Origin: Verrucomicrobiota bacterium
GTDB lineage: Bacteria > Verrucomicrobiota > Verrucomicrobiia > Chthoniobacterales > UBA10450
Length of the DNA: 55,134 bases
Reading direction: 5' to 3'
Assembly (NCBI GenBank): GCA_041167305.1
Contig: JBEEHI010000138.1
Span: 1 to 55,134, forward strand
Shown here: piece by piece, positions 6,119 to 29,319 of the stretch
Layout of the letters: the number at the start of each line of letters is the position of its first letter
How positions within the stretch are numbered: the stretch's first letter is position 1
Translations under genes and position numbers: made by a program
The notes under the pieces: model-generated
Databases searched by the model: none
Seen by the model: the letters and a program-made list of their open reading frames with translations, nothing else
What the model was told of the DNA's origin: nothing

Positions 6119-6139
6119 CCCGGAGAGCCGGCCGCACCC

Positions 6140-8637: not shown

Positions 8638-9737
8638 AAATGAAATTCCATTGGCGACTCCTGCAAGGCGGGGAAACCGCGAACATGACGCGCGCAGCCG
8701 GCTGGAATCGGCGCGAGACCGGCATGCCGGATCTGGAGCGGCAGGTGGAATTTTGCCGGCGCGCCGAGGAATGCGGAATGACCGGGCTGCTCACCGATAT
8801 CGGCGCGGCGAAACCGGATCCGATCCTGCTCGCCGCTGCGCTTGGACTGGCCACGGAGAAGATCGAATTGATCGTCGCCTATCGTTCCGGGCTGATTCCG
8901 CCGACGACTTTTGTCCAGCAACTGAACACACTCTCCGCGCTCATCCAGGGCCGGTTCAGCTTGAATATCGTCGCCGGCCATTCGCCCCTCGAGCAACGCT
9001 ACTACGGCGATTTTCTTAGCCACGATGAACGTTATCCGCGGACGGAAGAGTTTCTCGCCATCTGCCACGCTTTTTGGCGCAACAACGACCCCGTCAATTT
9101 TCAGGGCAAGTATTATCAGATCGAGAACGGGCGGTTGAATACCGTGTTCGTTTCAAAATCGCGCACGAGTCCTGAGATTTTCATCGGGGGCGGTTCGGAG
9201 GCGGCACGCACCCTGGCGATTTCGCAAGGCTCGTGCTGGATGCGCCTCGCGGACACGCCGGCGAACCTGGAACCGGACGCGAAGACGGTGCTGGCGGCGG
9301 GCAAGGAAGTGGGCGTGCGCGTCTGCGTGATTTGTCGCCCCACGCGCGCGGCCGCGGTGCGAGCGGCTTACGAGCTGGTCGCCGGTCTTGATCCCGCCTT
9401 GCGCGACGCGGAGCACGAACGCGACTTCATGCGCAAGAGTGACTCAGTTTCAATCCGCCAAGTTTACGAGATGGCGGAAGGCGAATGGCCGGCTTCCTGG
9501 CTTTGGACGGGCGCGGTCCGGACCCACGGCGGCGCGGCGATCGCCGTGGTCGGCAACCCGGAGGAGGTCGCCTCGGCATTCATCGAATACAAGCGCGCAG
9601 GTGTTACGCAATTTATCCTCGCCGGTTGGCCGAAGCTCGATGAGATGATCATTTTCGGCCGCGACGTTCTGCCCTTGATCCGCCAAGAAGAGCGCGCCCT
9701 CGATGAAGTGCGCGGCGCCAGCAGCCACGATGACTAG
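8634..9737 (+). CDS. LLM-class flavin-dependent monooxygenase (SsuD-like), paralog
   Basis: ATGA overlap at 8634. 367 aa. Colinear with 7495..8637 (IVAYRSGLIPPTTFVQQLNTLSALIQGRFSLNIVAGHSPLEQRYYGDFLSHDERY). Confidence 0.8.
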   Translation: MKMKFHWRLLQGGETANMTRAAGWNRRETGMPDLERQVEFCRRAEECGMTGLLTDIGAAKPDPILLAAALGLATEKIELIVAYRSGLIPPTTFVQQLNTLSALIQGRFSLNIVAGHSPLEQRYYGDFLSHDERYPRTEEFLAICHAFWRNNDPVNFQGKYYQIENGRLNTVFVSKSRTSPEIFIGGGSEAARTLAISQGSCWMRLADTPANLEPDAKTVLAAGKEVGVRVCVICRPTRAAAVRAAYELVAGLDPALRDAEHERDFMRKSDSVSIRQVYEMAEGEWPASWLWTGAVRTHGGAAIAVVGNPEEVASAFIEYKRAGVTQFILAGWPKLDEMIIFGRDVLPLIRQEERALDEVRGASSHDD

Positions 9738-10500
9738 CGAAATCTCACGCGCGCGCTTTGAGCGGGACGGCATCGTTTTTCCAATCCCGGCTCTATCGCC
9801 GGAGAAGACCGCTGCTTACCGGACCTGCTTTGCAGAGCTCGAACAGAGTGCCGGCAGCCCGCTTTATCGGCTCCAAAATCCAACAGCACACTTCGCCTGG
9901 GCTTATCGCCTGGCGACGGAGCCGGCGGTGCTCGACGCCGTGGAGGAAGTGCTCGGACCAGACTTACTCATCGCGGGATCTCTCGTGCTCTGCAAATATC
10001 CCCGTGACCCGGCCTTCGTCGCCTGGCATCAAGACAACTATTATTCGAACCTGCATCTGACGCCCTCACTCTCGGCCTGGATCGCCTTGCTGGACAGCAC
10101 AACCGAGAACGGCTGTATGCGCGTGATTCCGGGCTCGCATCAAAACGGTGTTCTGCCGCACGACGAAATGGGGAATGCCGAAAATCTTCTCAATCAAGGA
10201 CAGGAGATTCGAGTGGAGGTGAATGAGGCCGACGCGTTGGAGGTGATCTTGCGCGCGGGCGAGATGTCGCTGCACCATACCGCCATCATTCACGGTTCGC
10301 GCCCGAATCGGTCGGACACGAAGCGGCTCGGATTTATCGTACGTTTCGTAACGAGTGCATACGATCTGGCGTCCCAGCAGACGCCATTTTTCCTCGCGCG
10401 AGGCAGTGCGGCCAACGGCAATCTCCACCTGGCGGCGGCGCCGCCTGAGCGTCCGCTGGCGGAAGCTTGGAACGAATTTGAGCAGCGGCAATCGAGCTAA
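9730..10500 (+). CDS. phytanoyl-CoA dioxygenase (PhyH) family Fe(II)/2-oxoglutarate oxygenase
   Basis: ATG 9730 overlaps the upstream gene by 8 nt. FERDGIVF, WHQDNYY (HxD) and a distal HHTAIIHGSRPN. Confidence 0.75.
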   Translation: MTSEISRARFERDGIVFPIPALSPEKTAAYRTCFAELEQSAGSPLYRLQNPTAHFAWAYRLATEPAVLDAVEEVLGPDLLIAGSLVLCKYPRDPAFVAWHQDNYYSNLHLTPSLSAWIALLDSTTENGCMRVIPGSHQNGVLPHDEMGNAENLLNQGQEIRVEVNEADALEVILRAGEMSLHHTAIIHGSRPNRSDTKRLGFIVRFVTSAYDLASQQTPFFLARGSAANGNLHLAAAPPERPLAEAWNEFEQRQSS

Positions 10501-10503
10501 GCC

Positions 10504-11544: not shown

Positions 11545-11549
11545 AGATC

Positions 11550-12854
11550 ATGGCTCGAGGTGCGCACCGATTCCGTGAGATGTTTCAGCACCGTGTCTGT
11601 ATCAATCTCGATCGCAGGCCGGAGCGGTGGCAGCGCATGCAGGCGCGCTTCGCAAAAGTCGACTTGGGATCGGTGGAACGGTTCCCCGCCGTGGACGGAG
11701 CAAATTTAGAGGTGCCCGCCGAGTGGCCCGAATCGGCCGGGGCGTATGGATGTCTGCAAAGCCACCTAGCCGTGGTGCGCCAGGCACGAGCGCAAGGGCG
11801 CGAAAATGTTCTGATCGTCGAAGACGACGTGCTTTTCGCGGAAGGCTTTCATGAGGAATTCGAAAAGCGAGTGCGCGGGCTGCCGGCGGATTGGGACATG
11901 CTCTTCTTTGGTTGTCTGCATCACGATCCGCCTGCGCCGGTCGCCCCGGGGATCGGCCGGCTGCGCGCTTCGTTTTCCACTTTGATGTATGCGGTGCGAC
12001 GAACGGTTTACGACGCCTTCATCTGCCTGAACGAACGGGAAGAGTACGCCGTCGACCGAAGTAATTGGGAACTTCAGGAGCGGTTCAATTGTTACTGTTT
12101 CCTGCCGCACCTGGCCTGGGTGGATGACAGTTACTCCGACGCGCAAGGAGTGCTCTCCAACCATTGGTATATCCGCGACTCGATGGTGTTGCGCGGCGAG
12201 GAGATGAAATCGATGGAGAAGCGCACGGCAATAGTCATCCCCTACCGCGAGAACGGGAACCGCGAACGCGGTTTGAAAAACCTGCGTTTTTTGGTCCGGC
12301 ATTACGGCGCACTCTTTTCAGTGCTTATCGTGGAACAGAACGAGGAGCCTCGCTTGAACGCGAACGCGGCGCCGGTGGGGTGCGAATACATTCATCTGCC
12401 CGAGGCGCGGCAGGAGAACTATTATGCGGCAGGCTTGGAAAAATTCGGGCAAGCCAAAGACTTCATCATCATCAATGATGGAAACGTCGTGTGTTCGCGC
12501 ATGGAGATGCGGGCCAGCCTCTGCAAATGTGTCGAGCACGACGCGGTGGGATCGTTCGCCACTTTCATAGACCTGGACGACGCGGACAGCGATCGGTTGC
12601 TCAACGGCAGGGAGTATCACACGGAGCGCTATTCGGCCCGTGTGCGGCGGGGCCGGTTCCGCGAATATTTTACGGCCACGATGAAAGGACTGCGCGACCT
12701 CTGCTCCTCCGGCACACTCGCGGGCGGCGATGGGGATGCCGCGCCCAGCGCAGATTTGCGCATCTTCGATTCGCCGGGATCGGCGCTCTGCCTTTCTTCG
12801 GGCCAATCCGGGCACCAGAAATTTTGTCAAGAAAATAGTACGAATTGTGATTGA
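11550..12854 (+). CDS. two-domain glycosyltransferase (N-terminal GT25-like, C-terminal beta-1,4-galactosyltransferase/GT7-GT2-like)
   Basis: 434 aa. N-terminal INLDRRPERW...GAYGCLQSHLAVV...VLIVEDDVLF. C-terminal TAIVIPYRENGNRERGLKNLRFLVRHY...LIVEQNEE. Confidence 0.7.
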   Translation: MARGAHRFREMFQHRVCINLDRRPERWQRMQARFAKVDLGSVERFPAVDGANLEVPAEWPESAGAYGCLQSHLAVVRQARAQGRENVLIVEDDVLFAEGFHEEFEKRVRGLPADWDMLFFGCLHHDPPAPVAPGIGRLRASFSTLMYAVRRTVYDAFICLNEREEYAVDRSNWELQERFNCYCFLPHLAWVDDSYSDAQGVLSNHWYIRDSMVLRGEEMKSMEKRTAIVIPYRENGNRERGLKNLRFLVRHYGALFSVLIVEQNEEPRLNANAAPVGCEYIHLPEARQENYYAAGLEKFGQAKDFIIINDGNVVCSRMEMRASLCKCVEHDAVGSFATFIDLDDADSDRLLNGREYHTERYSARVRRGRFREYFTATMKGLRDLCSSGTLAGGDGDAAPSADLRIFDSPGSALCLSSGQSGHQKFCQENSTNCD

Positions 12855-12981
12855 CGCCCAAGGCGCGCTTCCGGCAAACTGTAGGCAATTGGCCCCTAAT
12901 TGACCCCCAGGAAGTGTTGGTGTCGCCCATTCTCGGGTGTCGGTTGGAGGTAAGAAAACCTCGATCACGAAAGGAACACCG

Positions 12982-13287
12982 ATGAGCAAGGCGAAATCAA
13001 AGTTGGGCGCAAAGGGTCCGAAAACCCCGGGACCCCTTGGGGGTGGCGGACCGAAAGGAACGAAGGGACCTGGAGGCAACAAGGGAGGCAAGGACGGCAA
13101 AGGAAAGGGCAAGGGAAAGAAGGGAGGAGGCCCGTGGTCCGGCGGCGGTCCGGTCGTAGTGGTGCTCGACGAGTACACTGCAAAGAACTTGTTCCTCGCG
13201 CTGGCACAAGCGTTGGGAGCGCCCATTAACAAGAAGAAGGGGAAGAAGGGCAAAAAAGGGAAGAAGGGCAAAAAAGGCGGGAAATAA
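12982..13287 (+). CDS. Lys/Gly-rich polycationic small protein with a short hydrophobic core
   Basis: ATG 12982 is preceded by AAAGGA. The longest ORF starts at GTG 12937. Sequence MSKAKSKLGAKGPKTPGPLGGGGPKGTKGPGGNKGGKDGKGKGKGKKGGGPWSGGGPVVVVLDEYTAKNLFLALAQALGAPINKKKGKKGKKGKKGKKGGK. Same strand as its neighbours. Confidence 0.55.
   Translation: MSKAKSKLGAKGPKTPGPLGGGGPKGTKGPGGNKGGKDGKGKGKGKKGGGPWSGGGPVVVVLDEYTAKNLFLALAQALGAPINKKKGKKGKKGKKGKKGGK
13240..13275 (+). repeat. perfect 18-nt tandem duplication (gggaagaagggcaaaaaa x2) encoding GKKGKK GKKGKK
   Basis: Read directly: 13240-13257 is identical to 13258-13275. In frame within the K/G-rich ORF. Confidence 0.95.
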
Positions 13288-13568
13288 GCCTTGAGGCGAG
13301 GTGACGTGTCAACGGCGCCGAACGTCCTGAGAGACCCGAGGACGCCCAAACCCTAAACATCAACCCATGATCAAGTAACCACTCTTGTGTGCGCGCCCTG
13401 GAAATCTTTTGGGTCCGACTGGTATTGCCGTCGGAATCAAGGGCGCGCCGCATCAGTGGGAGTCGGAATCCATCCGGCGTTCGAGCCTCCGGTGGACATA
13501 AGATGGTACCTGAAGAGGAATCACAAACTCGGCTGCGCGAGCAGCTGTTCGAACCAGAGGAAACTGCA

Positions 13569-16500
13569 ATGAGATACACCCACCTGTTCCGCCTTGGCAG
13601 CGCCGTAGCACTCCTGGCATTCGCCTTGGGCCCAGCAGCACCGGCAAAGGAAGCTCCCGTCGTGTGCAACCGCACCATCAAGGTGCAGATAGTCGCCTTC
13701 GATCAACCATGGATGTGGAATCGTCTCGGCGCAGCGCAGCCCGGCGGCATGATCTACGCGCTGGCCCGCGACGTTGTGAAGAACATGGATGGCTCGCCCT
13801 TGCCGGACGACTTGAAAGCTCTAAAGCCGGAGGATTCTAAATCGCTTTGCGGTGGCGTGCGCCTCCGCGATGGCAAACGCGCGCGTCCGCTCGTCCTGCG
13901 CGCGAACAAAGGGGATTGCCTCGAGATCACTTTCTTGAATCTGCTCCAACCGGATCCCGTGGCGGCGGACAACCGCCTGCCGGCTGCGGCTACTCGCTTT
14001 GCCGGGATCCATGCGGCGGGGATGGAGTTGGGAGACAAGTCGAGCGACTCGTCCTGGGTCGGCAACAATCCGAGCAGCCTCGCCGAAAACGGACAGACCA
14101 AGATCTATAAGTGGTACGCCGCAGAGGAAGGAACCTTCCTCATATATAGCGCCGCCGATATGGAAAGTGGTTATCAAGCCAAGGAAGGCTTGTTCGGCGC
14201 GATCCACGTCGAGCCCGAAGGGGCGGAATGGTATCGCAGCCAGATCACTCATGACGATCTGGAGCAGGCGACATTAACCGAGGCCGACTTGAAGGAGTAT
14301 TCCCAGAAATTGGTCGGAGCTTCCGTCGCAGCCGATCCACCGCCAAAGACGGCGGAAAAGATCGCGCCGGCGGCCGAGAAACCGCCGCCGGGAGCCGAAA
14401 ACTTTACCAAGAAAACGCTGGAAAGCTACGTCGCCGACAAGCGCTCCAGTGTCACCGTCTTCGTGGATGAAAAAGGCGCGGGCGGAAAACGTATCCATAC
14501 GGCCACCGGCCAGCCGCGGATCTATTATAACGCCCTGTATCCGGCGAAGGAGCAAAAGCGTGGCGTGCCTGTGCTGCAAATGCTGCAAGTAAATCCAGTT
14601 GGCGCGGCCCTGTACGACCAGCCTTTGCAGAAACAAAACCCAGCCGATTACATTGAGGAGGTGAGCGATTTGGACGCGGGCATCATTCCGGCCAAACTGC
14701 GGGCCCTCTTCAAAGATAAGAAACAGGAGCTCTCGCCCGGCGCGAAGGTGGTTGAGCAATACCGTTATAGCTGGCTGATCACCGACGAGGGCAAGGCCTT
14801 TTACGTGACGGCGAACCTTCCATCGACAGCGCAGGTAGCGCAGGCCCGTCAGCTCCAGATTTTCGCGGCCGAGCTGGAGCTGATTTATAGCGATCTCACC
14901 GCTGTGATTACCGGACCGAACGCCGGCAGGTTCTCGTACGCCAACACGAGCCCGACCTTTCGGGAGAACCCGGCTTCGCCCGATCGCCGCCAGCCGTACC
15001 GCGAGTACACGATAATTTATCATCAAGCCTTTTTCGCCACGCAAAGCTTTGCGTCTTTTGCGAACGCGAATCTGGTCAACGTCATTCAGCCTGGCGCCGA
15101 TAACTTCGCCATCAATTACGGTTCGGCCGCCATCGGCCCTGAGATAGTGGCGAATCGGCTGGGGGTGGGACCGATGGGAAATCGGGACGCGGTGGACTTA
15201 AAGTTTGAAGAATTCTTCCTCAGCGCCTGGGCGGTCGGAGATCCCGCCATGGTGGTGGATCATCCCGCGAATGCTTCCAACGCGATGGTCGGTTCTCCTT
15301 CTCTGGATGAGCACAGCGCGCTGCGGACCCAGGTTCCGCCAGGGTCCGTCGCCCAGCAACTCGCCGCCGCTCACGCGCCGCCGCTGCCGCGCCCGGCACA
15401 AGTGAGTCCGCCGGGAAGCGACGACTTCGCCCCGCTGCCGGCGCCGCCCGTCAAAGCGACGAAGGCGTTTTTTCCGGCTGATCCGTCGAACGTCTACCAC
15501 AGCTACATGAACGACCACGTGAAGTTCCGCATCCTCCATGCGGGACCCGGCCCGTCGCACGTCCATCATTTGCACGCGCACCAGTGGTTGCGCTCACCCG
15601 ATAGCGACGACGGCCATTATCTGGATAGCCAGCTCATCGTGCCGGGTTCGGCCTTCACTTTGGAGATCACCTACAACGGCAGTGGCAACCGCAATAAAAC
15701 GGTGGGGGATGCGATTTTCCACTGCCACTTTTATCCCCATTTTGCCCAGGGCATGTGGGCCATGTGGCGCGTTCACGACGTGTTCGAGGGAGGAACGCTG
15801 CTGGACAAAAACGGAGTACCGCTCAGTGGGGTCAACCGGGCGTTGCCGGATGGTGAGATCGAGCACGGCACCCCGATCCCGGCGATCGTGCCGCTGCCCA
15901 CTTTGGGCATGGCTCCGATGCCGGCGGAAGTGGAGCTCACGGACCTTTCGCCTTGGTCGCCGGGAGGGCAAGGCCGGCGAGTCCTCGTCCATAAGGAAAA
16001 GGACGGGACGTATCGGAGCCCGGGCTATCCCTTCTTCATCCCAGGAGTCGCCGGGCACCGCCCGCCGCACCCGCCGCTCGATTTTGCCTGGCTGGAGGAG
16101 CCTGATACCGGCAAGGCGATCCTGAGCCCGAGCCCATCGCCAGACCCAAGCCCTGGCAAGGATAGGAAGATTTATCTCGATGGCGGCCTGCCGCGCCACC
16201 TGGTCCTGGATGGTAAGGTGGTCAAGGAGTTCCATACGCGCTGGGACTTCAGCAAAGACACCGCGCTGCGCGATAAGGATGGAAATATTATTCCCGGCGG
16301 CGAGTTGTCGGCTTTCGAGCTCCCGGAGGAGGGCACGCCGGTAGAGCTTGCGGCCATGAAGGAACACGCCACGCGGACCCGGCCGACGACCCAGCCCAAT
16401 GGCGATCCCGGAAATTTCATCCTCAACGGTTTGCCTCCAACGCCGGGAGCGCCCTACGCCGATCCAGCGGTGACGGATGAAGGGAATGCCAACCCGCATC

Positions 16501-19500
16501 GCCGACGGTATCAAGCCGCCGTGTTTCAAATCGACACAGTTCTAAATAAGAAGGGCTGGCACTATCCCCAACAGCGAATGATTTCGCTCTGGCAGGATGT
16601 GAAACCGACGGTCGACACCACGCGCCCGCCGCAGCCCTTCTTCTTCCGCACCAATACTTCGGATAGCATCCAATACTGGCATACCAATCTGCTGCCGAGT
16701 TACTATGAGCTGGACGATTTCCAGGTCCGCACGCCAACGGACATCGTGGGGCAGCATATCCATCTGGTGAAGTTCGACGTGACTTCCTCCGACGGCGCGG
16801 AGAATGGGTTTAACTATGAGGACGGCACTTACGCGCCCGACGAGGTCCAGGAGCGGATCGCTTCCATCAATGCCAAGGGCGGTTTGTTTGCCTTCGACCC
16901 GGCGACGGGATTTGTGAATAAGGCGGCGCAACAAACACTTACCCCTAAGAAGGTCAAAGATTACTATCCGCCTCCCGACAGCAAATATGCCGGGCTGGAC
17001 GGCAATGGTGTTCCGACATGGACAAATCCGAATCCCAACGTGCTCTCCGTGTTCGGTCCGCCGACGGGCCGTTCCGATGCATGGGATGGCGCCCAGACGA
17101 CGATCCAACTCTGGGAGGTAGACGCACTCCTCAATAATGAAGGAGTCGACCGGACGCTGCGGACCGTCTTCACGCACGACCACTTCGGGCCGTCGACCCA
17201 CCAGCAGGCGGGTCTCTACGCGGGTATGATCGTCGAGCCGGAAAACTCGGAATGGTACCTGCCCGATGGTCTGCGGATGAACACGCGGCTCGATGGCGGT
17301 CCCACCAGTTGGCACGGATATATCGTGACCGACGATCCCAAAGATAGTTATCGCGAGTTTGTCCTCGAGTTCCAGGACATGCAGCTGGCCTACACCAAAG
17401 AGAGCCGGAAGAAGCCCTCGGCCAAAATGTTCGATCCCGATCTGGATCCCAAGGATTGCGGGGAGAACGGTAAGGAATGCTCCTCGCCGGCGTTCGACAT
17501 TGCGCAGGCCCATAGCATCGCCGGGATAAAGATCACCTACCTGCCCCTGTACGTCGCCGATCTGGACCAGGGCAAGCTTCCGGTGCCCCCACCGCAGGCA
17601 ATCGGCGCTGCGCCGTTCACCGAATTGTTCCCGCAGTTTGGAATTCCGCTTTCGAAAAATGCGACGGTGGCGGTCGTGACCAAAGGGGAGAAATGGACGA
17701 TCACGGAAGCGGCGAACGAAATCAACGGCAAGGCGAGCGACGGCAAGGCGACGAAATATATCGTGCGCGCCACGTTTGAAGCAAACCCCACGACGGGCGG
17801 CAAAACAATCAAGCAGCTATTGGTTTACACGCCGGATATTTCCCCGGGCTGGGCCGACGCGAAGTTTGCCCTCAATGCGCCGGGCGACAATGAAAACGCC
17901 GGGAATGGACCGCCGTTCGCGCAAATCGTGAGCCAGAACCAGAACGGCACCTATTCGCTGAATTATCGCAACGAACCGGTGCCATTCCGAGTCGCCTGCC
18001 CGCCGAATATGACCGAAAACGCCGACCTGGCGCTGGCCTTTAGCTCGATCAAGCGGAGCGATGCAGACCTAAACATCCAGCCCGACGGGAAGCCTGGCTT
18101 TCCCAAAACGCCGCTGGTGCCAAATGCAAAGGGGACGGATCCCTATACGCCACTGCTCGAAGCTTACGTGAACGATCGTGTGCAAATTCGCACGCTCGTA
18201 GGCGCGCACACGCAAGCGCACGCTTTCCAAATTCATGGAGTGAAATGGTTGTATGAGCCCGATAATCCCAACTCGGGTTGGCGCAACGCGCAACTCATGG
18301 GGCTCTCGGAACACTTCGAAATGATTTTCGACTTGCCCGGCACCACCTTCAAGCACGGGGGGCCAAACCCCGTTCCTGACCCGCAGATGCCGCCGTTCGC
18401 CGATTATTTTTATTCGCCCAGCTCCGACATCGTCGGATTGAACAATGGCCTTTGGGGAATCATGCGCTCTTATGGCGCCCCCGTTCCGGGTGTGCAGCCA
18501 TTGCCGAACAATCCGAAGCCCGCCTCCAATGTCGAAAACGACCTGTTCAAAGATGGATATGACAAGGCTCCGAAAGCCCTCCGACAGGACTTCAAAGTCA
18601 CGGCGGTGACGGCGGATGTGCTCCCGAATGGCAATCTGATTTACAACGGCCGCGATCCGGGCAGCCAGCTCTCCACCAATGAAGCGGTGCTCTTCGTTCG
18701 CACCGACGATCTGGACCCCACAACAAAGAAACTAAAATCTAGCGTGCCAGTCGAGCCTTTGATTCTTCGGGCCGCGGCGGGCCAATGGATCAAGGTGACT
18801 TTGCACAATGCGTTCGATGTGAAAAGCAAAGCGTTGACGGATATCGAGACGCTTCCTTATGGCACCCCCTTTACCGGTGGACCGGACGCTCCGGAACCCG
18901 GTCTGAAGACTTCCGCAAAGGTCGGCTTGCACCCGCAATTGGTCGGCTTCGATCCAATCAACGCAAACGGTGTCCTCGTCGGGTTCAATCCGAAAGACCG
19001 GCTGGTGGACCCAGGCCAGACGCGCGATTTCTATTGGTATGCCGGGGAGCTAAGGCGAGACGAAAACGGAAAGATTCAGGCGCAGCCGATCGAGTTTGGC
19101 GGCACGAACCTTACTTCGGCCGATCAACTGCTTCAGCCCCAGTTCGGCATGGTGGGCGCGCTGATCATTGAGCCGGAAGGCGCCACCTGGACCGAGGATG
19201 TCTCCAGCCGCGCCTCTGCCACCGTCAAGTTCCCGGGCGGCGCCGATTTCCGGGAATTCGTGGTGATCGATCAGAACATGGTGGCCAACTCGGCGGCGGA
19301 CAATAGTGTTCTGGCCAGTGTCGCGGGAAGCGCAATCGGGGCAATAAATTACCGCTCGGAGCCGTTTGGGATTCGCGGCGTGCCGAGTAACGCCCAAAAC
19401 TTTCCACAGCCTGCGCCGCAGGGGTACGCGCAAGCCTTCTCCAATAGCATGTTCAATCCGCCGGCCGATCCGCAAACCCCGGTGTTCGTGGCCGCAGCTG

Positions 19501-20105
19501 GAACGCCGACGCGTTTCCGAATGCTCGTTCCCAGCACGGCCACGAGTAATGCCATCAACGCGCCACCCGTCTTCATCGTTCACGGCCATAACTGGCTGGA
19601 AGAGCCCTACGTTTTCGATTCCTCGAAAATCGGCTCTAATCCGCTTTCCGAAACACAGGGCGCCGTGCAAGGCGGCGTAGGCCAGAAGTTCGATCTGGTC
19701 TTCCCCAGCGCCGGTGGTCGCAATAAAGTTGCGGGCGATTATCTTTACACCACGTACCAAACCGCCGGGCGGGCCGGCACCTGGGGCCTCTTCCGGGTAA
19801 CGCCGTACCAAGTGGCGATCGAGAAAGCGACTCTCGTGAAAGACACGGTCGAGGTGAGCGGAACAGTGCAGGCGGCGACGACGGTAGGCGGTGGCGTCAT
19901 GCCAAAGAATTTGCTGTTAACGATCGCCAGCGAGAAGAACGCCGGGGCCGAGGCGGGAACCCCCAGAACCATCAAGGTCAATGATGGAAAATGGTCGTAC
20001 AAGGGCACGACAAAGCTTCTCGCGCCCGCGCGCGTCCAAGTCACCGCGTTTGGAGACGACAATTTGGTTGCCGCCACCAGTTCAGCGATACTCACCGCCC
20101 GCTAG
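13569..20105 (+). CDS. giant secreted multicopper oxidase-like protein (2,178 aa; MnxG-like large MCO)
   Basis: ATG 13569 with GAGGAA 7 nt upstream. Signal peptide MRYTHLFRLGSAVALLAFALGPAAPA. Copper motifs HVHHLHAH (15558-15581), HCHFYPHFAQGM (15720-15755), HIH (16755-16763), THDHFGPSTHQQAGLYAGMIVEP (HDH at 17175-17183), HAFQIHG (18207-18236) and HGH (19581-19589). Confidence 0.85.
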   Translation: MRYTHLFRLGSAVALLAFALGPAAPAKEAPVVCNRTIKVQIVAFDQPWMWNRLGAAQPGGMIYALARDVVKNMDGSPLPDDLKALKPEDSKSLCGGVRLRDGKRARPLVLRANKGDCLEITFLNLLQPDPVAADNRLPAAATRFAGIHAAGMELGDKSSDSSWVGNNPSSLAENGQTKIYKWYAAEEGTFLIYSAADMESGYQAKEGLFGAIHVEPEGAEWYRSQITHDDLEQATLTEADLKEYSQKLVGASVAADPPPKTAEKIAPAAEKPPPGAENFTKKTLESYVADKRSSVTVFVDEKGAGGKRIHTATGQPRIYYNALYPAKEQKRGVPVLQMLQVNPVGAALYDQPLQKQNPADYIEEVSDLDAGIIPAKLRALFKDKKQELSPGAKVVEQYRYSWLITDEGKAFYVTANLPSTAQVAQARQLQIFAAELELIYSDLTAVITGPNAGRFSYANTSPTFRENPASPDRRQPYREYTIIYHQAFFATQSFASFANANLVNVIQPGADNFAINYGSAAIGPEIVANRLGVGPMGNRDAVDLKFEEFFLSAWAVGDPAMVVDHPANASNAMVGSPSLDEHSALRTQVPPGSVAQQLAAAHAPPLPRPAQVSPPGSDDFAPLPAPPVKATKAFFPADPSNVYHSYMNDHVKFRILHAGPGPSHVHHLHAHQWLRSPDSDDGHYLDSQLIVPGSAFTLEITYNGSGNRNKTVGDAIFHCHFYPHFAQGMWAMWRVHDVFEGGTLLDKNGVPLSGVNRALPDGEIEHGTPIPAIVPLPTLGMAPMPAEVELTDLSPWSPGGQGRRVLVHKEKDGTYRSPGYPFFIPGVAGHRPPHPPLDFAWLEEPDTGKAILSPSPSPDPSPGKDRKIYLDGGLPRHLVLDGKVVKEFHTRWDFSKDTALRDKDGNIIPGGELSAFELPEEGTPVELAAMKEHATRTRPTTQPNGDPGNFILNGLPPTPGAPYADPAVTDEGNANPHRRRYQAAVFQIDTVLNKKGWHYPQQRMISLWQDVKPTVDTTRPPQPFFFRTNTSDSIQYWHTNLLPSYYELDDFQVRTPTDIVGQHIHLVKFDVTSSDGAENGFNYEDGTYAPDEVQERIASINAKGGLFAFDPATGFVNKAAQQTLTPKKVKDYYPPPDSKYAGLDGNGVPTWTNPNPNVLSVFGPPTGRSDAWDGAQTTIQLWEVDALLNNEGVDRTLRTVFTHDHFGPSTHQQAGLYAGMIVEPENSEWYLPDGLRMNTRLDGGPTSWHGYIVTDDPKDSYREFVLEFQDMQLAYTKESRKKPSAKMFDPDLDPKDCGENGKECSSPAFDIAQAHSIAGIKITYLPLYVADLDQGKLPVPPPQAIGAAPFTELFPQFGIPLSKNATVAVVTKGEKWTITEAANEINGKASDGKATKYIVRATFEANPTTGGKTIKQLLVYTPDISPGWADAKFALNAPGDNENAGNGPPFAQIVSQNQNGTYSLNYRNEPVPFRVACPPNMTENADLALAFSSIKRSDADLNIQPDGKPGFPKTPLVPNAKGTDPYTPLLEAYVNDRVQIRTLVGAHTQAHAFQIHGVKWLYEPDNPNSGWRNAQLMGLSEHFEMIFDLPGTTFKHGGPNPVPDPQMPPFADYFYSPSSDIVGLNNGLWGIMRSYGAPVPGVQPLPNNPKPASNVENDLFKDGYDKAPKALRQDFKVTAVTADVLPNGNLIYNGRDPGSQLSTNEAVLFVRTDDLDPTTKKLKSSVPVEPLILRAAAGQWIKVTLHNAFDVKSKALTDIETLPYGTPFTGGPDAPEPGLKTSAKVGLHPQLVGFDPINANGVLVGFNPKDRLVDPGQTRDFYWYAGELRRDENGKIQAQPIEFGGTNLTSADQLLQPQFGMVGALIIEPEGATWTEDVSSRASATVKFPGGADFREFVVIDQNMVANSAADNSVLASVAGSAIGAINYRSEPFGIRGVPSNAQNFPQPAPQGYAQAFSNSMFNPPADPQTPVFVAAAGTPTRFRMLVPSTATSNAINAPPVFIVHGHNWLEEPYVFDSSKIGSNPLSETQGAVQGGVGQKFDLVFPSAGGRNKVAGDYLYTTYQTAGRAGTWGLFRVTPYQVAIEKATLVKDTVEVSGTVQAATTVGGGVMPKNLLLTIASEKNAGAEAGTPRTIKVNDGKWSYKGTTKLLAPARVQVTAFGDDNLVAATSSAILTAR

Positions 20106-20107
20106 CG

Positions 20108-22201: not shown

Positions 22202-22243
22202 ACGTTTGCGAGGGACCCAGGAAATCTCCCTGCCGCTCTCGGC

Positions 22244-23008: not shown

Positions 23009-24019
23009 CTACGAAATGCCGACGGCAAACTGCGCTGGTCCAAGCTTCAACTTCACCCAGCGGCGGGCGTGCCGCTTTGGGACCGAAGACCAAAGCGCGA
23101 TTTCTTTCGTCAGCTCGGTCACATAATCGCGCGCCATTCTGAGGTAGTGATAATGTTCCAGGGCGAGGACGCGGCAAGCCAGCGGTGAGATGCGGCCGAT
23201 ATTTTCAACGGCACAAACGTAGTCACCGAAATTCGAACAGACAAAGCCCGCTTCAGGCGGCACGAGTTCCGGACACGCACCGCGATCGCTGCAAATGACC
23301 GGCGTCCCGGACATCAACGCTTCGGCGACCACAAGGCCAAAGGTCTCGTTGGCGAGAGTGGGAAAAAGTAAGGCGCGCGCGCCGGCAAATAGCTCCGCCT
23401 TTCTCTTGCCTGAAACGTGCCCGACATAAGTGATGCCTTCCTGCGCAAACATCTGCAAGATGGCTGGCGCCGGCGGTTGATCGGGGGAACCGCCGGCCAC
23501 CACGAGCTTGAGCCCGCAAGCACGTACCAGCGACCTCGCCACCTCGAAACCCTTAAGCTGCAAAGTAGCCATATTGGCCACGACAAAGAGAAAATAATCG
23601 CGCTTGGTTTCCGAATAAATTAGTTCGCTTGGGTCGATGCCATTGGTGACATAGCGGCGCCGATAGAACGATGACGCGTGCGCCTTGGAGACAAAAATCC
23701 AATTTCGCCGTATGTGCCGCCAGATTCGATCCCGAGGTTTACGTGGAGAATGGTAAGGACGCACCCAGGGAACGCCGCGCGTCTCCGGCGAAGTCCACGG
23801 ACTGTAGTCCTGGAGCACCATGGCATCGACGTTGTAGCGCCGCTTTCGGACGAGCTCGACACCCTCGGGCAGCCGGGTGGCGGCGCCGCCTTCGAGTTTA
23901 TAAATAACGGTGTGTCCCAGCTCGGCCAAGCCTTTCGCCAGGCAGTCTGCGATTCGGTCGGATGCCATGCCGCCGTCGCTTGCTGGATATCGGTGGCCCG
24001 AAGCGATGAGAATTTTCAT
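23009..24019 (-). CDS. glycosyltransferase family 4
   Basis: 336 aa. ETFGLVVAEALMSGTPVICSDRGACPELVPPEAGFVC. ATGA overlap with the upstream 719-aa gene. Confidence 0.85.
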   Translation of the reverse strand: MKILIASGHRYPASDGGMASDRIADCLAKGLAELGHTVIYKLEGGAATRLPEGVELVRKRRYNVDAMVLQDYSPWTSPETRGVPWVRPYHSPRKPRDRIWRHIRRNWIFVSKAHASSFYRRRYVTNGIDPSELIYSETKRDYFLFVVANMATLQLKGFEVARSLVRACGLKLVVAGGSPDQPPAPAILQMFAQEGITYVGHVSGKRKAELFAGARALLFPTLANETFGLVVAEALMSGTPVICSDRGACPELVPPEAGFVCSNFGDYVCAVENIGRISPLACRVLALEHYHYLRMARDYVTELTKEIALWSSVPKRHARRWVKLKLGPAQFAVGIS

Positions 24020-26175
24020 GCGGCCACTGCGCGCTCAGATGTGGGTGTCCCAGGCAAATACAGAAACGCGTAGCGCTTCACCACATCGCCATGTTTCTCC
24101 AGCGCGGTCAGATAATTCTCAATTACCTCCTCATCGTATTTCCGGCGCGAAAGATAGGTTTGCGTGCGCGCTTTCCATTCCGCCAGTTGAGCGCCGTCGT
24201 CGCAGGCGCCCAGATAGTCGGCCACGATCGCGTTCCAATCCCGTAGGTGGCGAAGATACGATTTCGAAAAAAGCCGCCGAACTTTCGGATCGCGCTCCAG
24301 CGCCTGGCGAGTGCGCCAGCAGGCGATCTTCATCGCTTCGTTCAGATAATCATAGCCGCGGGCGCGCTCCGCCTCCGTCACGTGATAAATCTGCGCGAGG
24401 AAAAACAGGTCGCTCCGGGCGATCTGTTTCGGGCGTCCCGGGTTGCCGCGGATGAAGCACTCGTCCAGCACCGCTGTTCTCAAGGCGCCCTGGGGCCAGA
24501 ACACCTCTTCGTCTTCCTCCGGAACAAACAGATTATCATGGTCCATGGAAAGGAGCCGCGAAGTCCATTCGCCTCGGACGAACGTGCTCTTGAGACCCAC
24601 ATTACGGCCTACGAATGATTCTCCGTAGGTAAAGCCCCCGAGGGCGAGAACCGTGCCCCAGAGCAGGCCAAGATCGGAGACCGCCCCCGCATGAAGAAGA
24701 TCCGCGCGCCGTCGGTTTTCCGGTACAGCGAAGGCCGCTGCGAGGTATTGAGCGTGATCTGCGTAGGCGACCGCGGGCGCTTGATAAATGCCCAGCACTT
24801 CATCGAGCAGCGCATCGGCGAAACGCCGCGCCTCGTCGCGGCTGTAACATTCCCGCTTCAGTCCGCGCTGAAAATAAATCTCTGCGCCTGCGTGGGAGAA
24901 ATATTTCGTGAGCGTATCGAGGCGGTAGGAAGTGGTTTGCGCGAGCAGGCCCTGGCACGGCAGAACATGGTAAAGGAAGCGGCCGGTGAGTCCCGCCTCA
25001 CCCGGCAGATGAGCGAAGTCGCGGCCGAACTGCTGGTCGAACGCGGAAATGCATTGCTTCATCTGCTGCCGCATCTCTGGATGGCCGGCGCCAAAAACTT
25101 CCGGGTCGGTAAAGTAGTCGAGCAGGTGAACGTCACGGCCCTGACACGGCACCGTTCTATAACTCGCCAGCGCGAGCAATTTGGAGATGGGGGCTTCACC
25201 GCCGTGCGCCGCGCGATAGACTTCCGAAAAGATTGCGGCGTGGTTCGATTCCCAGCGCAGGCCCGCGGTGGAAGCGCCGCCCTGTAAACGATGCGACGGC
25301 GGGACGGCTTCGCCTTTGTGGGCAAACGAAGCCGAGAGCGGGAAAGAACCGCGAAGACCCGTGCGCTTGATCTCGATTTCCAGCGAGCTGCCCGGTGGTT
25401 TCACCACGCAAACGACCGTGCCAATTGGATTCTCGAGCAGGCGATTGATCGCGGAGGAGGTCCGTTCGCAGGCCCAATAAACCCTCGCGCGCTGGCTCAG
25501 GCGCCGCACGATTTCCCGTTCATAGGCTGGCAGGTGCGACAGGTACCGCTCCGCTTCCGCCTCGCCGAGATCTTCCAGCGGGGAGGTGAGACCCGAGGAA
25601 ACTTGCAACTGCTTCCACACCCGCTCCACCACTTCCGCCGGCGTGAAAAGGTGGCGGGCGAGGGCGACTTTGCAGGGATCACGAGAGATGACGATGAAGT
25701 CGTCGAGCGCTTGGGTCGTCGTGTCAAAACCGCACAAACCGCGATGGGTTCGCTCAAGCCGGCGAAGATGGTGCCGAAATTGGACGCTGAAGGCGCGGAG
25801 TTCGGTGGAGGTGTAACCCTGCCGCAGCACGTCGGCCTGCACGCCGCGCGCGTCGGATTCCAACAATCCCAGGCTGGCGAAAAGCGAGGTGAATTCCTCA
25901 CTGGCATCGATCGGGAGCCGGAGGCATTGATTGGCCAGCATCAGGGCAGCAAACAAACGGAGGTTCCATGAAGCGCCGCCGCCGCCACGCCCGAGCCGCA
26001 CCAGCTCGAGGGCAAAACGCCGTTCGTAATGATTCAGCGCAAGGAATGCGCTGACCACATCCGCAGCGAGCGGTTCGCCGGGGAAGCGGGCGGCCACGAC
26101 CTGCGCCAAATTCGCGGGAAGCGGCGGGCCGGCCTCGCGGCGGCTGAAAATCTCGCCGGGGGGATGTGCGGGCAT
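24016..26175 (-). CDS. large hypothetical protein (719 aa), no family recognised
   Basis: Long ORF with ordinary, non-low-complexity composition, translationally coupled to the GT4. It contains only weak kinase-like strings (VVCVVKPPGSSLEIEIKRTG, SMDHDNLF). Confidence 0.6.
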   Translation of the reverse strand: MPAHPPGEIFSRREAGPPLPANLAQVVAARFPGEPLAADVVSAFLALNHYERRFALELVRLGRGGGGASWNLRLFAALMLANQCLRLPIDASEEFTSLFASLGLLESDARGVQADVLRQGYTSTELRAFSVQFRHHLRRLERTHRGLCGFDTTTQALDDFIVISRDPCKVALARHLFTPAEVVERVWKQLQVSSGLTSPLEDLGEAEAERYLSHLPAYEREIVRRLSQRARVYWACERTSSAINRLLENPIGTVVCVVKPPGSSLEIEIKRTGLRGSFPLSASFAHKGEAVPPSHRLQGGASTAGLRWESNHAAIFSEVYRAAHGGEAPISKLLALASYRTVPCQGRDVHLLDYFTDPEVFGAGHPEMRQQMKQCISAFDQQFGRDFAHLPGEAGLTGRFLYHVLPCQGLLAQTTSYRLDTLTKYFSHAGAEIYFQRGLKRECYSRDEARRFADALLDEVLGIYQAPAVAYADHAQYLAAAFAVPENRRRADLLHAGAVSDLGLLWGTVLALGGFTYGESFVGRNVGLKSTFVRGEWTSRLLSMDHDNLFVPEEDEEVFWPQGALRTAVLDECFIRGNPGRPKQIARSDLFFLAQIYHVTEAERARGYDYLNEAMKIACWRTRQALERDPKVRRLFSKSYLRHLRDWNAIVADYLGACDDGAQLAEWKARTQTYLSRRKYDEEVIENYLTALEKHGDVVKRYAFLYLPGTPTSERAVAA

Positions 26176-26272: not shown

Positions 26273-28237
26273 GTGGTTCGGAACACTCCCCAGCTCACCG
26301 GCATGATTTCGTCCTGGTCGCGCACGATGGTGATTCTCTTGGGCCTCGGGGCGCTGGCCGCCGCGGGGCCCGAACCAATCCGCGGGACATTGGAGGACAA
26401 AGGGATCCGGGTCGCGTTTGAAGTCGCGCGGGTGGCTGCGCCCGACGCGCGCGGCGAATCATTTCAGGAAGGCGACGCCGTGCGGTTTGGTTTCACCATC
26501 ACAGATTCCGCCGGAAAAGCTCCCATTCGGGGCGCGAACGCCCGCGCCTGGCTGAGCTTGCGCCGTGAGGGCGAAATCCCGGCGGCGAATGCGCCGAAAG
26601 TGAAAGCGTCGCGTTTTCTCACTGGCGGCATCTTCGGCCAGGCTGATCTCGATTTGAATTCGTTCTATGTCCTGGCTTTGAACGGTGACGCCAGCATCTC
26701 CGTGGTCGATCCGCTTTTCGGTTTTGGGAACACAAAGCTTCTCGCCCTTATTCCGCTCTCGGCAAATGGCTACGACTGGGCGCTGACGCAGGACCAGTCG
26801 AAGCTCTTCGTTTCGATTCCGGAAAAAGGGCAAATCGCAGTGATCGATACTTCCCGCTGGGAAGTGGCCAAGTACATCGAAGCGGGCCTGCGTCCCGCGC
26901 GGCTTGCACTCCAGCCCGATGAACAATATCTCTGGGCCGCCGGCAGCGAAGGCGACTCGAACACCAGCGCGGTCGCATTTCGCACCGATACTTTCGCGCC
27001 TGTGGCCCGGCTGCCCATTGGCCGCGGCAATCATGCCTTCGCGGTGACGCGCAACAGCACCTTCGTCTTCATCACCAATGGCGAAGATGATTCCATTTCA
27101 ATCATCGACACCCGGGCCCTGGCGAAAGTGAAGGAGATCAAAGTGGGCCGCGGGCCAGTGGCAGCCACCTATTCGGAGTTGGCCGATGCGCTTTATGTGT
27201 GCGTAGCCGACGCTGGTGAAATTGCGGTGGTCGATGCAAAAACCCTGACGCTGGCCAAGACCATTCGGGCGCAGACGGGCCTCGCCGACATTGCGACCGC
27301 GCCCGGCGGGCGTCATGTGCTCGCGGTGAATCGGAAAACGGACGTCGTCGAGGTGATCGATACATCGTCCAGTGAAATCATTCAGACCGGAACCGTAGGC
27401 AAGGCGCCGTTTCAAATTTCGTTTTCGCGCGACCTTGCCTACATCAACCATCTCGAAAGCACGGAAATTTTCATGCTCCCGCTCTCGCAGATCGGCCGGC
27501 GCGGCCAGCCGCTTTCGGTGGTCACCTTTCCCGCCAGTCAGCGTCCGCTCGGCGAAGCGTGGCGCGGCAGCCCCGCAGCCCGCATCGTGCCCGTGCCGGG
27601 AGAAGCCGCTGTCCTGGTGGCCGACACCCTAGATCGCGCGATCTATTTTTACAAAGAGGGAATGGCGGCACCGATGGGCACCTTCACCAATTACAAGCGG
27701 GAGCCGATGGCCGTGCAGGTGGTCGATCGCACCCTGCGCGAGCGGAGTACGCCCGGGGTTTACGATACCGTGGCCAAGCTGGGAAAGCCGGGCATTTATG
27801 ATGTCATTTTTTTTCTCGACTCGCCCAAAATCGTCGATGGCTTCGAATTAACCGTCGCGCCGAACCCCAAGCTCGAAGCCGAACGAAACGGGCCGAAAGT
27901 GGTGATCGCGCCGCTGGTTCCAACGATGCCCACGAAAGGCGGCACGACCGCGACATTTAAGTTTCGAGTAACGGACAAGCAAACCAATGAGCCGGTCACG
28001 GGTCTTCGCGATATGGTGATCGTGATCATGGCGCCGGGAAACTGGCATGAGCGCCAGGTGGCCAAAGAGGAGGGAGACGGCGTCTATGGTGTGACCGTGA
28101 CGCCGCCCGAGGCGGGAGTCTATTACGCGCACGCGCAATGCCCTTCACTTAATGTTCAATTCGGAAACCCGCATTATCCCGTCTTGCGGATTGCGCCGGC
28201 CAGCTCGGCCAGCGCCGCAGCGAAGAAGAGTGAGTAG
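26273..28237 (+). CDS. secreted YVTN-type beta-propeller repeat protein with C-terminal Ig/FixH-like domain
   Basis: GTG 26273 (alternative ATG 26303). Repeats such as KLFVSIPEKGQIAVIDTSRWEV and TFVFITNGEDDSISIIDTRALAKV. C-terminal GVYGVTVTPPEAGVYYAHAQ. Confidence 0.7.
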   Translation: MVRNTPQLTGMISSWSRTMVILLGLGALAAAGPEPIRGTLEDKGIRVAFEVARVAAPDARGESFQEGDAVRFGFTITDSAGKAPIRGANARAWLSLRREGEIPAANAPKVKASRFLTGGIFGQADLDLNSFYVLALNGDASISVVDPLFGFGNTKLLALIPLSANGYDWALTQDQSKLFVSIPEKGQIAVIDTSRWEVAKYIEAGLRPARLALQPDEQYLWAAGSEGDSNTSAVAFRTDTFAPVARLPIGRGNHAFAVTRNSTFVFITNGEDDSISIIDTRALAKVKEIKVGRGPVAATYSELADALYVCVADAGEIAVVDAKTLTLAKTIRAQTGLADIATAPGGRHVLAVNRKTDVVEVIDTSSSEIIQTGTVGKAPFQISFSRDLAYINHLESTEIFMLPLSQIGRRGQPLSVVTFPASQRPLGEAWRGSPAARIVPVPGEAAVLVADTLDRAIYFYKEGMAAPMGTFTNYKREPMAVQVVDRTLRERSTPGVYDTVAKLGKPGIYDVIFFLDSPKIVDGFELTVAPNPKLEAERNGPKVVIAPLVPTMPTKGGTTATFKFRVTDKQTNEPVTGLRDMVIVIMAPGNWHERQVAKEEGDGVYGVTVTPPEAGVYYAHAQCPSLNVQFGNPHYPVLRIAPASSASAAAKKSE

Positions 28238-28248
28238 GACCTGATGCT

Positions 28249-29319
28249 ATGTTGATAAGGCGTCTCGGAATTCTGCTAACATCGGTGCTTGTGTGGGGCC
28301 CGAGTTGGACCAACGCCGCCGCGCCGCCGCAGATCAAGGATGTCCCGGACACCATGCTGGTGGATCAGGAAGGCCGGGAGGTCCGGTTCAAAAGCGACGT
28401 GCTCGGGGAGAAGACCGTCGCCATCCAGTTCATCTTTACTACCTGCCGCGCCATCTGTCCCGTCATGGGCGCTGCTTTTGCCAAGCTGCAAGACCGGCTG
28501 GGCGATCGGCTCGACAAGGATATTTCGCTCGTCTCCATCAGCATCGATCCCGTCACCGACACGCCCGTACGGATGAAACAATGGGGCGAACAATTTGGCG
28601 CGCGCCCCGGCTGGCGTCTGCTCACCGGCGAGAAGGGGAAGATCGAAAATCTGCTCAAGGCGCTCGAAGCCACCAATCACAACGCGCCAGTGGTGCTGCT
28701 CGGAAACTTGCGCACGGGCGAATGGGTGCGCTCCTACGACGACATCACCGCGCCCGACAAACTCTACGCCCAGCTCATCGATTTGGCGGACAAGCCCTCC
28801 CAGGCGCAAGAATACTTTGCCAATACGGTTCTGACCGACCAGGACGGAAAAAAGTTACGGCTCTACGAAGATCTACTGAAGGGAAAGGTCGTAGTAGTGA
28901 ATGCTTTTTTCTCCACCTGCCGGAGCGTTTGCTTGGAGACCATGCCGACTGTGGCTGCACTTCAGGCCGTGGCAGGAGACCGCCTGGGCAAAGACGTGAA
29001 CCTTCTCTCGATCTCGGTCGATCCACTCAATGATACTCCGGCAAAACTCAAAACTTATGCGCGAGCGCTTGGGGCGAAACCGGGCTGGTATTTTCTCACG
29101 GGCGATCAGCAGGCCGTCAACGATGCGCTATACAAGTTTGGCCAGTACGTCGAAGTCAGGGAGACCCACTCGAACGTGTTCCTCATGGGAAATGACCGAA
29201 CCCGCTTGTGGAAAAAGGTGCTGGGAACTCCGCAGGTCCCAGATAAGGCGGCGAGCTTCGAAGCTATTGCGGCGATCTTCCGTTCGGTTCTGAATGATAA
29301 GGGTGAGGCTAAACCTTAG
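28249..29319 (+). CDS. tandem double SCO1/SenC-family (thioredoxin-fold copper chaperone) protein
   Basis: Signal peptide. Two copies of the SCO signature: FTTCRAICPVM...SISIDPVTDTP (CxxxC at 28444-28458) and FSTCRSVCLET...SISVDPLNDTP (CxxxC at 28918-28932). Confidence 0.8.
   Translation: MLIRRLGILLTSVLVWGPSWTNAAAPPQIKDVPDTMLVDQEGREVRFKSDVLGEKTVAIQFIFTTCRAICPVMGAAFAKLQDRLGDRLDKDISLVSISIDPVTDTPVRMKQWGEQFGARPGWRLLTGEKGKIENLLKALEATNHNAPVVLLGNLRTGEWVRSYDDITAPDKLYAQLIDLADKPSQAQEYFANTVLTDQDGKKLRLYEDLLKGKVVVVNAFFSTCRSVCLETMPTVAALQAVAGDRLGKDVNLLSISVDPLNDTPAKLKTYARALGAKPGWYFLTGDQQAVNDALYKFGQYVEVRETHSNVFLMGNDRTRLWKKVLGTPQVPDKAASFEAIAAIFRSVLNDKGEAKP

Follow-up and report, generated by a model that had tools for sequence, protein, structure and literature searches.

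The DNA analyzed here, called the window throughout, is the whole of the 55,134-nucleotide (nt) contig JBEEHI010000138.1 of a Verrucomicrobiota bacterium (assembly GCA_041167305.1), and all coordinates given below are window positions. Between 13569 and 20105 on the forward strand it carries a gene for a very large multicopper oxidase (MCO), which an earlier note had described as a giant secreted protein encoded in one uninterrupted open reading frame (ORF) and as unusual in the order of its copper motifs. The interval indeed translates as a single open frame of 2,178 codons plus a stop codon, and our analysis points, as the probable explanation of the locus, to a Sec-exported six-domain MCO of the MnxG type, with Mn(II) as its most likely substrate. 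The gene and the parts of its product are listed below, with L1 to L4 denoting the four copper motifs and T1 the type 1 copper site.

13569..20105, + strand: MnxG-type six-domain multicopper oxidase gene, 2,178 amino acids (aa) plus stop, assigned by NF041487, 9bxa_A and >1,700 homologues
13569..13649, + strand: predicted Sec-type signal peptide, residues 1-27, cleavage at about APA/KE, no twin-arginine, read from the sequence
13671..14246, + strand: domain 1, residues 35-226, odd-type and cupredoxin-like, copper histidines lost, aligning to Bacillus MnxG 52-157
14658..14954, + strand: inserted module I1, residues 364-462, a repeat of I3 (hhalign I1 to I3, 94%, E 1.4e-7)
14979..15803, + strand: domain 2, residues 471-745, even-type, with the sole complete T1 site and half of the trinuclear ligands, aligning to MnxG 254-376
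15558..15581, + strand: L3 motif H664-V-H-H667-L-H669-A-H671 (HxxHxH; putative T1 His and two trinuclear His), invariant in the family, aligning to HVFHYHVH of MnxG
15720..15755, + strand: L4 motif H718-C719-H720-x3-H724-x4-M729 (putative T1 Cys, His and Met and two trinuclear His), with H724 aligning to 9bxa position 340
16494..17438, + strand: domain 3, residues 976-1290, odd-type, with L1 and L2, aligning to MnxG 427-651
16755..16763, + strand: L1 pair H1063-I-H1065, invariant in the family, aligning to HIH of MnxG
17175..17183, + strand: L2 pair H1203-D-H1205, invariant in the family, aligning to HDH of MnxG
17550..17915, + strand: inserted module I3, residues 1328-1449, small alpha/beta, repeated from I1 (hhalign)
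17934..18488, + strand: domain 4, residues 1456-1640, even-type, with a vestigial site (H1547, H1551, H1556, H1582, no Cys), aligning to MnxG 691-759
18531..19823, + strand: domains 5 and 6, residues 1655-2085, in which HGH at 2005 is vestigial, aligning to MnxG 874-1203
19824..20102, + strand: C-terminal extension, residues 2086-2178 (93 residues), beyond the Bacillus MnxG alignment and with no Pfam match

The longest possible ORF of the oxidase opens at a GTG codon at 13389, and a database protein of 100% identity (P0001, 2,200 aa) is called from an ATG at 13503. Since a homologue of 87% identity (P0002) starts MRYRNILR..., at a position equivalent to ATG 13569, and a GAGGAA lies just 5' of this codon, ATG 13569 is the better start, and the comparison suggests that the call from ATG 13503 is a gene-calling artefact. 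The start used for P0001 (window 13503-13568) puts 22 acidic residues, MVPEEESQTRLREQLFEPEETA, ahead of the signal peptide. Judged by eye, the N-terminus MRYTHLFRLGSAVALLAFALGPAAPA/KE resembles a signal peptide with a basic n-region, a hydrophobic core and an APA/KE end, and of 94 homologues 86 carry a hydrophobic N-terminal stretch and none a twin-arginine translocation (Tat) motif, in line with the Sec-type export that had been proposed. Just before domain 1 stands Cys33 (window 13665-13667), in C-N-R-T-I-K, which is kept in most closer homologues at a varying distance from the signal peptide, with (KVSPAP)n repeats intervening in some; this CNRT cysteine was considered as a lipoprotein anchor and rejected, as there is no lipobox and the residue lies beyond the predicted cleavage site. 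A scan for sigma-54 promoters, motivated by the MnxR control known in Pseudomonas, returned 29 matches where 24 were expected, the gap upstream of the oxidase containing none of them; a sigma-70 promoter scan found none. No terminator-like fold was detected after the oxidase stop codon (z -0.31), and tRNA and Rfam scans of the window returned nothing.

The only strong family match of the protein was to the NCBIfam model NF041487, copper_ox_MnxG, a profile of 1,894 positions (E=0, 1,032 bits, in 8 stretches), and in the PDB the only real match was 9bxa_A, the MnxG of Bacillus sp. PL-12 (E 3e-70). The alignment of the query to this chain by phmmer comprises six domains in order:

query 104-222, MnxG 52-157: domain 1
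query 638-761, MnxG 254-376: HxxHxH and HCH...M
query 957-1087, MnxG 427-553: HIH
query 1195-1286, MnxG 567-651: HDH
query 1523-1591, MnxG 691-759: domain 4
query 1722-2077, MnxG 874-1203: domains 5 and 6

More than 1,700 homologues were returned by the database search, of which the closest are 2,150-2,330 aa long; one of 87% identity is named by NCBI "MAG: manganese oxidase [Verrucomicrobiota bacterium]" (MAG, metagenome-assembled genome), and two more distant relatives are likewise labelled manganese oxidase by JGI. One scan of species-representative genomes found relatives in at least 464 genomes, among them Verrucomicrobiota, Acidobacteriota, Bacteroidota, Gammaproteobacteria, Planctomycetota and Ca. 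Kuenenia, and an exhaustive HMMER search with residues 630-1290 gave 595 cluster representatives at E<=1e-30 (clusters at 50% identity). The membership in the MnxG class at which the earlier note had hinted is thus borne out by the profile match and the collinearity with the Bacillus enzyme, and we hold the assignment of family and architecture with high confidence. Among the relatives, the cultured acidobacterium Sulfidibacter corallicola (L016, complete genome; L011) has at least three MnxG-like genes, two of which are divergently adjacent (L011 1197-7277, - strand, and 7899-13871, + strand); one of this pair has no HDH (L2) under a strict pattern.

The copper motifs lie exactly at the residues that had been reported for them, with HVHHLHAH at 664, HCHFYPHFAQGM at 718, GQHIH at 1061 (HIH at 1063), HDH at 1203, and the partial sites HTQAHAFQIHG at 1547 and HGH at 2005. 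As had also been claimed, the ligand set of a multicopper oxidase, comprising one Cys, ten His and an axial Met in the motifs HxH, HxH, HxxHxH and HCHxxxHxxxxM, is present once, and all 12 ligand residues of the four motifs are invariant in the family alignments, an 18-sequence alignment among them. The 80 related loci yielded 77 long ORFs (1,512-2,454 aa with a median of 1,910, the first possible start being used for each, and a few non-oxidases included); each motif was found in 71-72 of them, the order was always L3, L4, L1, L2, and the L3-to-L4 spacing was 54 residues in every ORF in which both motifs were found. Motif conservation and fixed order are far above chance expectation. Query H724 aligns with chain residue 340, which is Ala in the PDB entry titled "Mnx H340A complex". 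In keeping with the electron paramagnetic resonance literature on Mnx and with its position in the motif we take H340 of Bacillus MnxG to be a T1 ligand, and the alignment is consistent with H724 as the second T1 histidine. Literature searches for a paper on 9BXA/H340A found nothing.

A count of the cupredoxin domains with Pfam profiles, as the earlier note had proposed, was run and gave only a sub-threshold Cu-oxidase_2 match, so that the domains were taken from the collinearity with 9BXA and from hhalign instead. For the latter the 18-sequence family alignment was split into regions, which were compared profile to profile. The odd domains proved to be related to one another (D1 to D5 99.3%, D3 to D5 96.5%, D1 to D3 92.7%), and so did the even domains (D4 to D6 99.3%, D2 to D6 96.9%, D2 to D4 62%), a pattern that, as read from these profiles, is that of three pairs of an odd and an even domain, the plan of the six-domain MCOs. 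The N-terminal segment that had been singled out for its lack of histidines (residues 104-222) aligns with domain 1 of Bacillus MnxG, and the partial sites correspond to vestigial remnants in domain 4 and at HGH 2005, domains 4 and 6 retaining mere vestiges of the L3 and L4 positions. When the two segments are aligned at equal length, H1551 pairs with H664 and H1556 with H669, and a Glu stands at the position of the T1 Cys. A module of about 100 residues (D-L-D-x-G-x-[IL]-P ... W-x-IT ... [FY]-x-V-x-A) precedes domain 2 as I1 and domain 4 as I3; no family could be assigned to it, and it is absent from the short linkers of Bacillus MnxG. As far as the alignments allow it to be judged, the approximately 950 residues that the protein has beyond Bacillus MnxG are inserts between and within domains together with the C-terminal extension, rather than extra cupredoxin domains.

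This architecture has known counterparts. According to Vasin et al. (PMC3600357), bacterial six-domain MCOs carry their T1 copper in domain 2, with the trinuclear cluster lying between that domain and domain 3, and the trinuclear site of the algal Fox1 is also placed between domains 2 and 3 (PMC3600357). The homologues listed there range from 1,217 to 2,681 aa and include proteins of Pseudomonas putida GB-1 (PputGB1_2447, 1,944 aa), Planctomyces maris (2,047 aa), Methylobacterium populi (2,493 aa) and Roseovarius (2,681 aa), so that the 2,178 aa of the window oxidase fall within the known range. MnxG of Bacillus sp. PL-12 (9BXA, a chain of 1,227 residues) is collinear over all six domains and carries the same four motifs in the same order, although it is about 950 residues shorter, the window protein being 1.8 times as long; moreover, Bacillus MnxG is a spore-surface protein, whereas the window oxidase has a Sec-type signal peptide. 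MnxG of P. putida GB-1 (PputGB1_2447) is likewise a giant six-domain MCO, and it is its NCBIfam model that constitutes the only strong match; here the differences are a Verrucomicrobiota instead of a Pseudomonas host and a window oxidase that is about 230 aa longer. Work cited on these enzymes gives 25% as the identity of BaMnxG and PpMnxG, a figure we have at second hand. Ceruloplasmin, hephaestin and the algal Fox1 follow the same six-cupredoxin plan of three two-domain units, but the PDB search gave no significant sequence match to eukaryotic six-domain MCOs. The same HxH/HxH/HxxHxH/HCHxxxHxxxxM ligand chemistry is also used by SLAC, CotA, CueO, MofA, MoxA and McoA, and weak matches to Cu-oxidase_2 and to a small laccase were found at residues 639-737; two- and three-domain MCOs nevertheless differ in domain number and motif order, and their Pfam models score below threshold in the window oxidase.

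A second line of evidence comes from accessory genes. The window ORFs were compared by blastp with the ORFs of the 80 related loci, from which all counts out of 80 are taken, and three genes downstream of the oxidase were recovered as counterparts of genes in the P. putida mnxG operon:

26273..28237, + strand: YVTN beta-propeller with a YtkA-like end, counterpart of operon gene 2 (TIGR02276 above cut-off; 58/80 loci)
28249..29319, + strand: SCO1/SenC copper chaperone in tandem form, with CxxxC motifs at residues 66 and 224, corresponding to genes 3 and 4 of the operon (54/80 loci)
29294..30892, + strand: fusion of a cytochrome c (CVNCH at residue 77) with a periplasmic binding protein, corresponding to gene 5 of the operon (44/80 loci)

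In P. putida GB-1 the operon consists of mnxG, a YVTN propeller, two SCO1/SenC genes, a gene for a substrate-binding protein (SBP) with a cytochrome c domain, and SurA (Table 4 of PMC11409713), and Mn oxidation in this strain requires two MCO genes, of which mnxG is one, a statement that PMC11409713 passes on from the work it cites. The accessory genes are thus the same, but the two SCO1/SenC proteins are fused in the window, and no counterpart of the SurA-like gene was seen there. All three window proteins have hydrophobic N-termini. The loci that combine these genes with the oxidase come from many phyla, and many loci are ordered exactly oxidase, propeller, SCO, cytochrome c; in the window and in L001-L005, its closest relatives, glycosyltransferase genes separate the oxidase from the accessory genes.

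In the explanation that we favor, we infer the individual ligand assignments, the route of copper loading, the cellular location and the substrate. The apo-protein would be exported by Sec and, because export is of the Sec rather than the Tat type, would probably receive its copper in the periplasm, where the co-encoded tandem SCO1/SenC chaperone would load it. Only domain 2 would retain a T1 copper site, formed by H664, C719, H724 and M729, and the eight trinuclear histidines would be supplied by domain 2 (H667, H669, H718, H720) and domain 3 (H1063, H1065, H1203, H1205); since the trinuclear ligands are split between these domains, the O2-reducing cluster would lie at the domain 2/3 interface. 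Electrons from the substrate would enter at the T1 copper and pass over the Cys-His bridge to the trinuclear cluster, which would reduce O2 to water, and the YVTN propeller and the cytochrome c-SBP protein would serve as further helpers, as in the mnxG operon of P. putida GB-1. Mn(II) would be the most likely substrate, oxidized to Mn(III/IV) oxide outside the cytoplasm.

The window also contains a second set of recurrent neighbors of the oxidase, none of which is present in the six-gene operon of P. putida:

9703..10500, + strand: PhyH-type Fe(II)/2-oxoglutarate dioxygenase (28/80 loci)
11550..12854, + strand: GT25-family glycosyltransferase (22/80 loci)
12982..13287, + strand: small Lys/Gly-rich KG protein of 101 aa, conserved in its hydrophobic core and possibly a partner, encoded directly upstream of the oxidase
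24016..26175, - strand: U719, an uncharacterized 719-aa protein (25/80 loci)

The KG protein is extremely rich in Lys and Gly, with G-X-K triplets (GPKGTKGPGGNKGGKDGKGKGKGKKGG ... KKKGKKGKKGKKGKKGGK) around the conserved core VVVVLDEYTAKNLFLALAQALGAPI; it lacks a signal peptide and matches nothing in Pfam, NCBIfam or the PDB. Its relatives share the core V-x-V-[IV]-L-x3-[TC]A-x2-L[FY]-x-AL-x2-ALG, which stands between tails rich in Lys/Gly or Lys/Pro, some of them collagen-like (GPKGPKGPKG), and about 23 of the 80 loci, in three phyla, encode a protein of this type no more than about 700 bp from the oxidase. As a possible analogue of MnxE/F, the small subunits of the Mnx system, it was rejected, having no sequence similarity to any PDB chain, those of the 9BXA Mnx complex included. 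U719 looks cytoplasmic. Its 161 homologues carry neither a functional annotation nor a Pfam domain, and U719 itself gave no Pfam, NCBIfam or PDB sequence match; its conserved motifs are VVKPPGSxLEFEIKRxGxRG, GESFVGRNVGLKS and FMDHDNL. The AlphaFold2 (AF2) model of U719 is confident (predicted local distance difference test score, pLDDT, 92.7), and its best fold matches, which are weak, are to the AMPylating pseudokinase SelO/YdiU (E 0.015-0.08, probability 0.92-0.99), with protein kinases next.

The second module recurs with the oxidase in about a third of the loci, in Verrucomicrobiota, Acidobacteriota and some Gammaproteobacteria, and for 24 U719 homologues the length of the longest contig equals that of an oxidase homologue, which suggests that the two lie on one contig. 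When loci were sampled independently from three distant U719 homologues (L081, L082 and L084), a small protein with the core-plus-tails layout was found immediately upstream of U719 in all three, and each had nearby an MnxG-like gene of 1,935-2,277 aa without a Pfam match; these loci also carry PhyH, TauD, 2OG-FeII_Oxy, GT25, HPAT-like, GT47, GT29 and VHL-like genes. A literature search on mnxG together with glycosyltransferases and hydroxylases found nothing describing this neighbor association. We tentatively suggest, as a possibility that on balance we doubt, that in these taxa the MnxG-type oxidase might form part of a larger, undescribed system together with the KG protein, U719, PhyH/TauD dioxygenases and GT25 or other glycosyltransferases. 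In such a system the enzymes may hydroxylate and glycosylate the KG protein, which is small, polycationic and non-secretory-looking, and the modified protein may provide the negatively charged Mn oxide with a scaffold or anchor or be the real partner or substrate of the oxidase, for which silaffins and the glycosylation of collagen hydroxylysine (Hyl) offer loose analogies.

Further genes were recorded in a block around the oxidase (4829-12854, 19991-24019 and 30899-31852), which comprises an acyl-CoA-dehydrogenase (ACAD)-like gene, two luciferase-like monooxygenases, the PhyH dioxygenase and seven glycosyltransferase-type genes, the latter being three of the GT4/GT1 type, GT25, a GINT1_N/GH43-like, a GT32-like and a Glyco_trans_1_2 gene. 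Several of them accompany MnxG-like genes in other phyla as well, the ACAD-like gene in 18 of the 80 loci. The longest ORF of the GINT1_N-like gene (19991-20968, + strand) overlaps the 3' end of the oxidase by 115 nt, but because its homologue in L001 starts 18 nt after the oxidase stop codon, the true start probably lies just past 20105; the lack of a terminator-like structure between the two genes suggests that they are co-transcribed. Unrelated to the oxidase, a homologue of the prokaryotic pentameric ligand-gated ion channels, with Neur_chan_LBD and Neur_chan_memb, is encoded at 36124-37164 (- strand).

Homology, collinearity, ligand conservation and the synteny of the accessory genes support a Sec-exported, MnxG-type manganese oxidase, and several observations have to be set against it. 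In Pfam the protein matched only Cu-oxidase_2, with 11.3 bits against a cut-off of 20.4 bits (E 0.29), the oxidase family being too divergent for the Pfam models. The 1,032 bits obtained with NF041487 are one third of the equivalog cut-off of 3,100, and five further members of the long-form clade (two gammaproteobacterial proteins and one each from Bacteroidota, Acidobacteriota and Kuenenia) score 905-1,097 bits; since all scored members fall far below the cut-off, the clade, as judged by these scores, is a sister group of the genetically tested Pseudomonas MnxG and not a set of its orthologues. In the window the accessory genes lie 6 kb from the oxidase, behind the glycosyltransferase block, and not immediately downstream as in P. 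putida. No MnxE/MnxF-like subunit was found among the neighboring ORFs scanned, of which the KG protein was the only small one screened. The AF2 model of residues 440-1639, calculated from a 34-row alignment, is poor (mean pLDDT 53.5, predicted template modeling score 0.56), I3 being among its two best-predicted parts with pLDDT of 68-92 over 10-residue blocks; in a Foldseek search this low-pLDDT model had 9bxa_A as its best structural match (E 8e-6), and all matches, ceruloplasmin among them, were to MCO cupredoxin domains over about 110-125 columns each, which agrees with the MnxG assignment as far as such a model can be relied on. Finally, no report of biochemistry on the long form, or of a Mn-oxidation test of any member of the clade, was found in literature searches that were not aimed at these points.

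The weakest link is the oxidation of Mn(II), the manganese oxidase activity EC 1.16.3.3, which we regard as moderately likely from the relationship of the sequences and from the names given in databases. An enzyme with the same fold and copper chemistry that acts on Fe(II), Cu(I), phenolic or humic polymers or a protein is a rather unlikely alternative, though one of some substance, and its protein substrate might be the Lys/Gly/Pro-rich neighbor, hydroxylated and glycosylated, which would be cross-linked or matured. The substrate range of MCOs cannot be read from sequence, the clade scores about 1,000 bits where the equivalog cut-off demands 3,100, about a third of the loci adjoin a small repetitive protein, hydroxylases and glycosyltransferases with nothing specific to Mn, and no Mn-specific regulator (MnxS/MnxR) was present among the scanned ORFs, which are a part of those in the window. 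However, the only functional data for the family, the biochemistry of Bacillus MnxG and the genetics of P. putida, concern Mn oxidation, P. putida mnxG is accompanied by this same accessory set, and there is no positive evidence for any other substrate.

The two remaining alternatives concern the protein rather than its substrate. A surface protein with a structural or adhesive role, catalytically dead and keeping no more than its cupredoxin folds, could be imagined from the loss of copper sites in four of the six domains, the large insertions and the C-terminal extension, but we consider it most improbable in view of a complete T1 and trinuclear set that is invariant across phyla and of the dedicated copper chaperones encoded alongside. 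A new architectural class of MCO, in which the motifs would be rearranged and the size would exceed that of every MnxG-type enzyme described, is also very unlikely. It is true, as the earlier note had observed, that the motif order differs from that of the three-domain MCOs, and the protein is both far longer than Bacillus MnxG and unrecognized by Pfam; yet the same order, with L3 and L4 before L1 and L2, is a hallmark already published for bacterial six-domain MCOs, this order and full collinearity are found in Bacillus MnxG, published homologues of up to 2,681 aa share the placement of the sites (PMC3600357), and hundreds of relatives are of near-identical length. Because known MnxG relatives have the same motif order and a similar length, the claim of novelty in size and architecture does not hold, while the description of the protein as poorly described is fair insofar as Pfam is blind to it. 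The oxidase adds one further member to the known family of MnxG-type enzymes, for which the size, the order of the motifs and the helper genes have been described before.

The enzyme itself adds little, being one more MAG-encoded putative manganese oxidase of the MnxG type in a family that is already annotated automatically in metagenomes. The long form represents a broad sister group of the Pseudomonas enzyme, encoded in at least 464 species genomes and falling into about 600 clusters at 50% identity; it is common in Verrucomicrobiota, Acidobacteriota and Bacteroidota, and a 2022 survey assigned 98% of Mn-oxidase homologues to three other phyla. The conservation across phyla of the accessory set of propeller, SCO1 and cytochrome c-SBP proteins defines a core system that can be tested. 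The neighbor module of uncharacterized genes is the more unusual part of the locus and, if it is functionally linked to the oxidase, would bear on how bacteria template or anchor Mn oxides.

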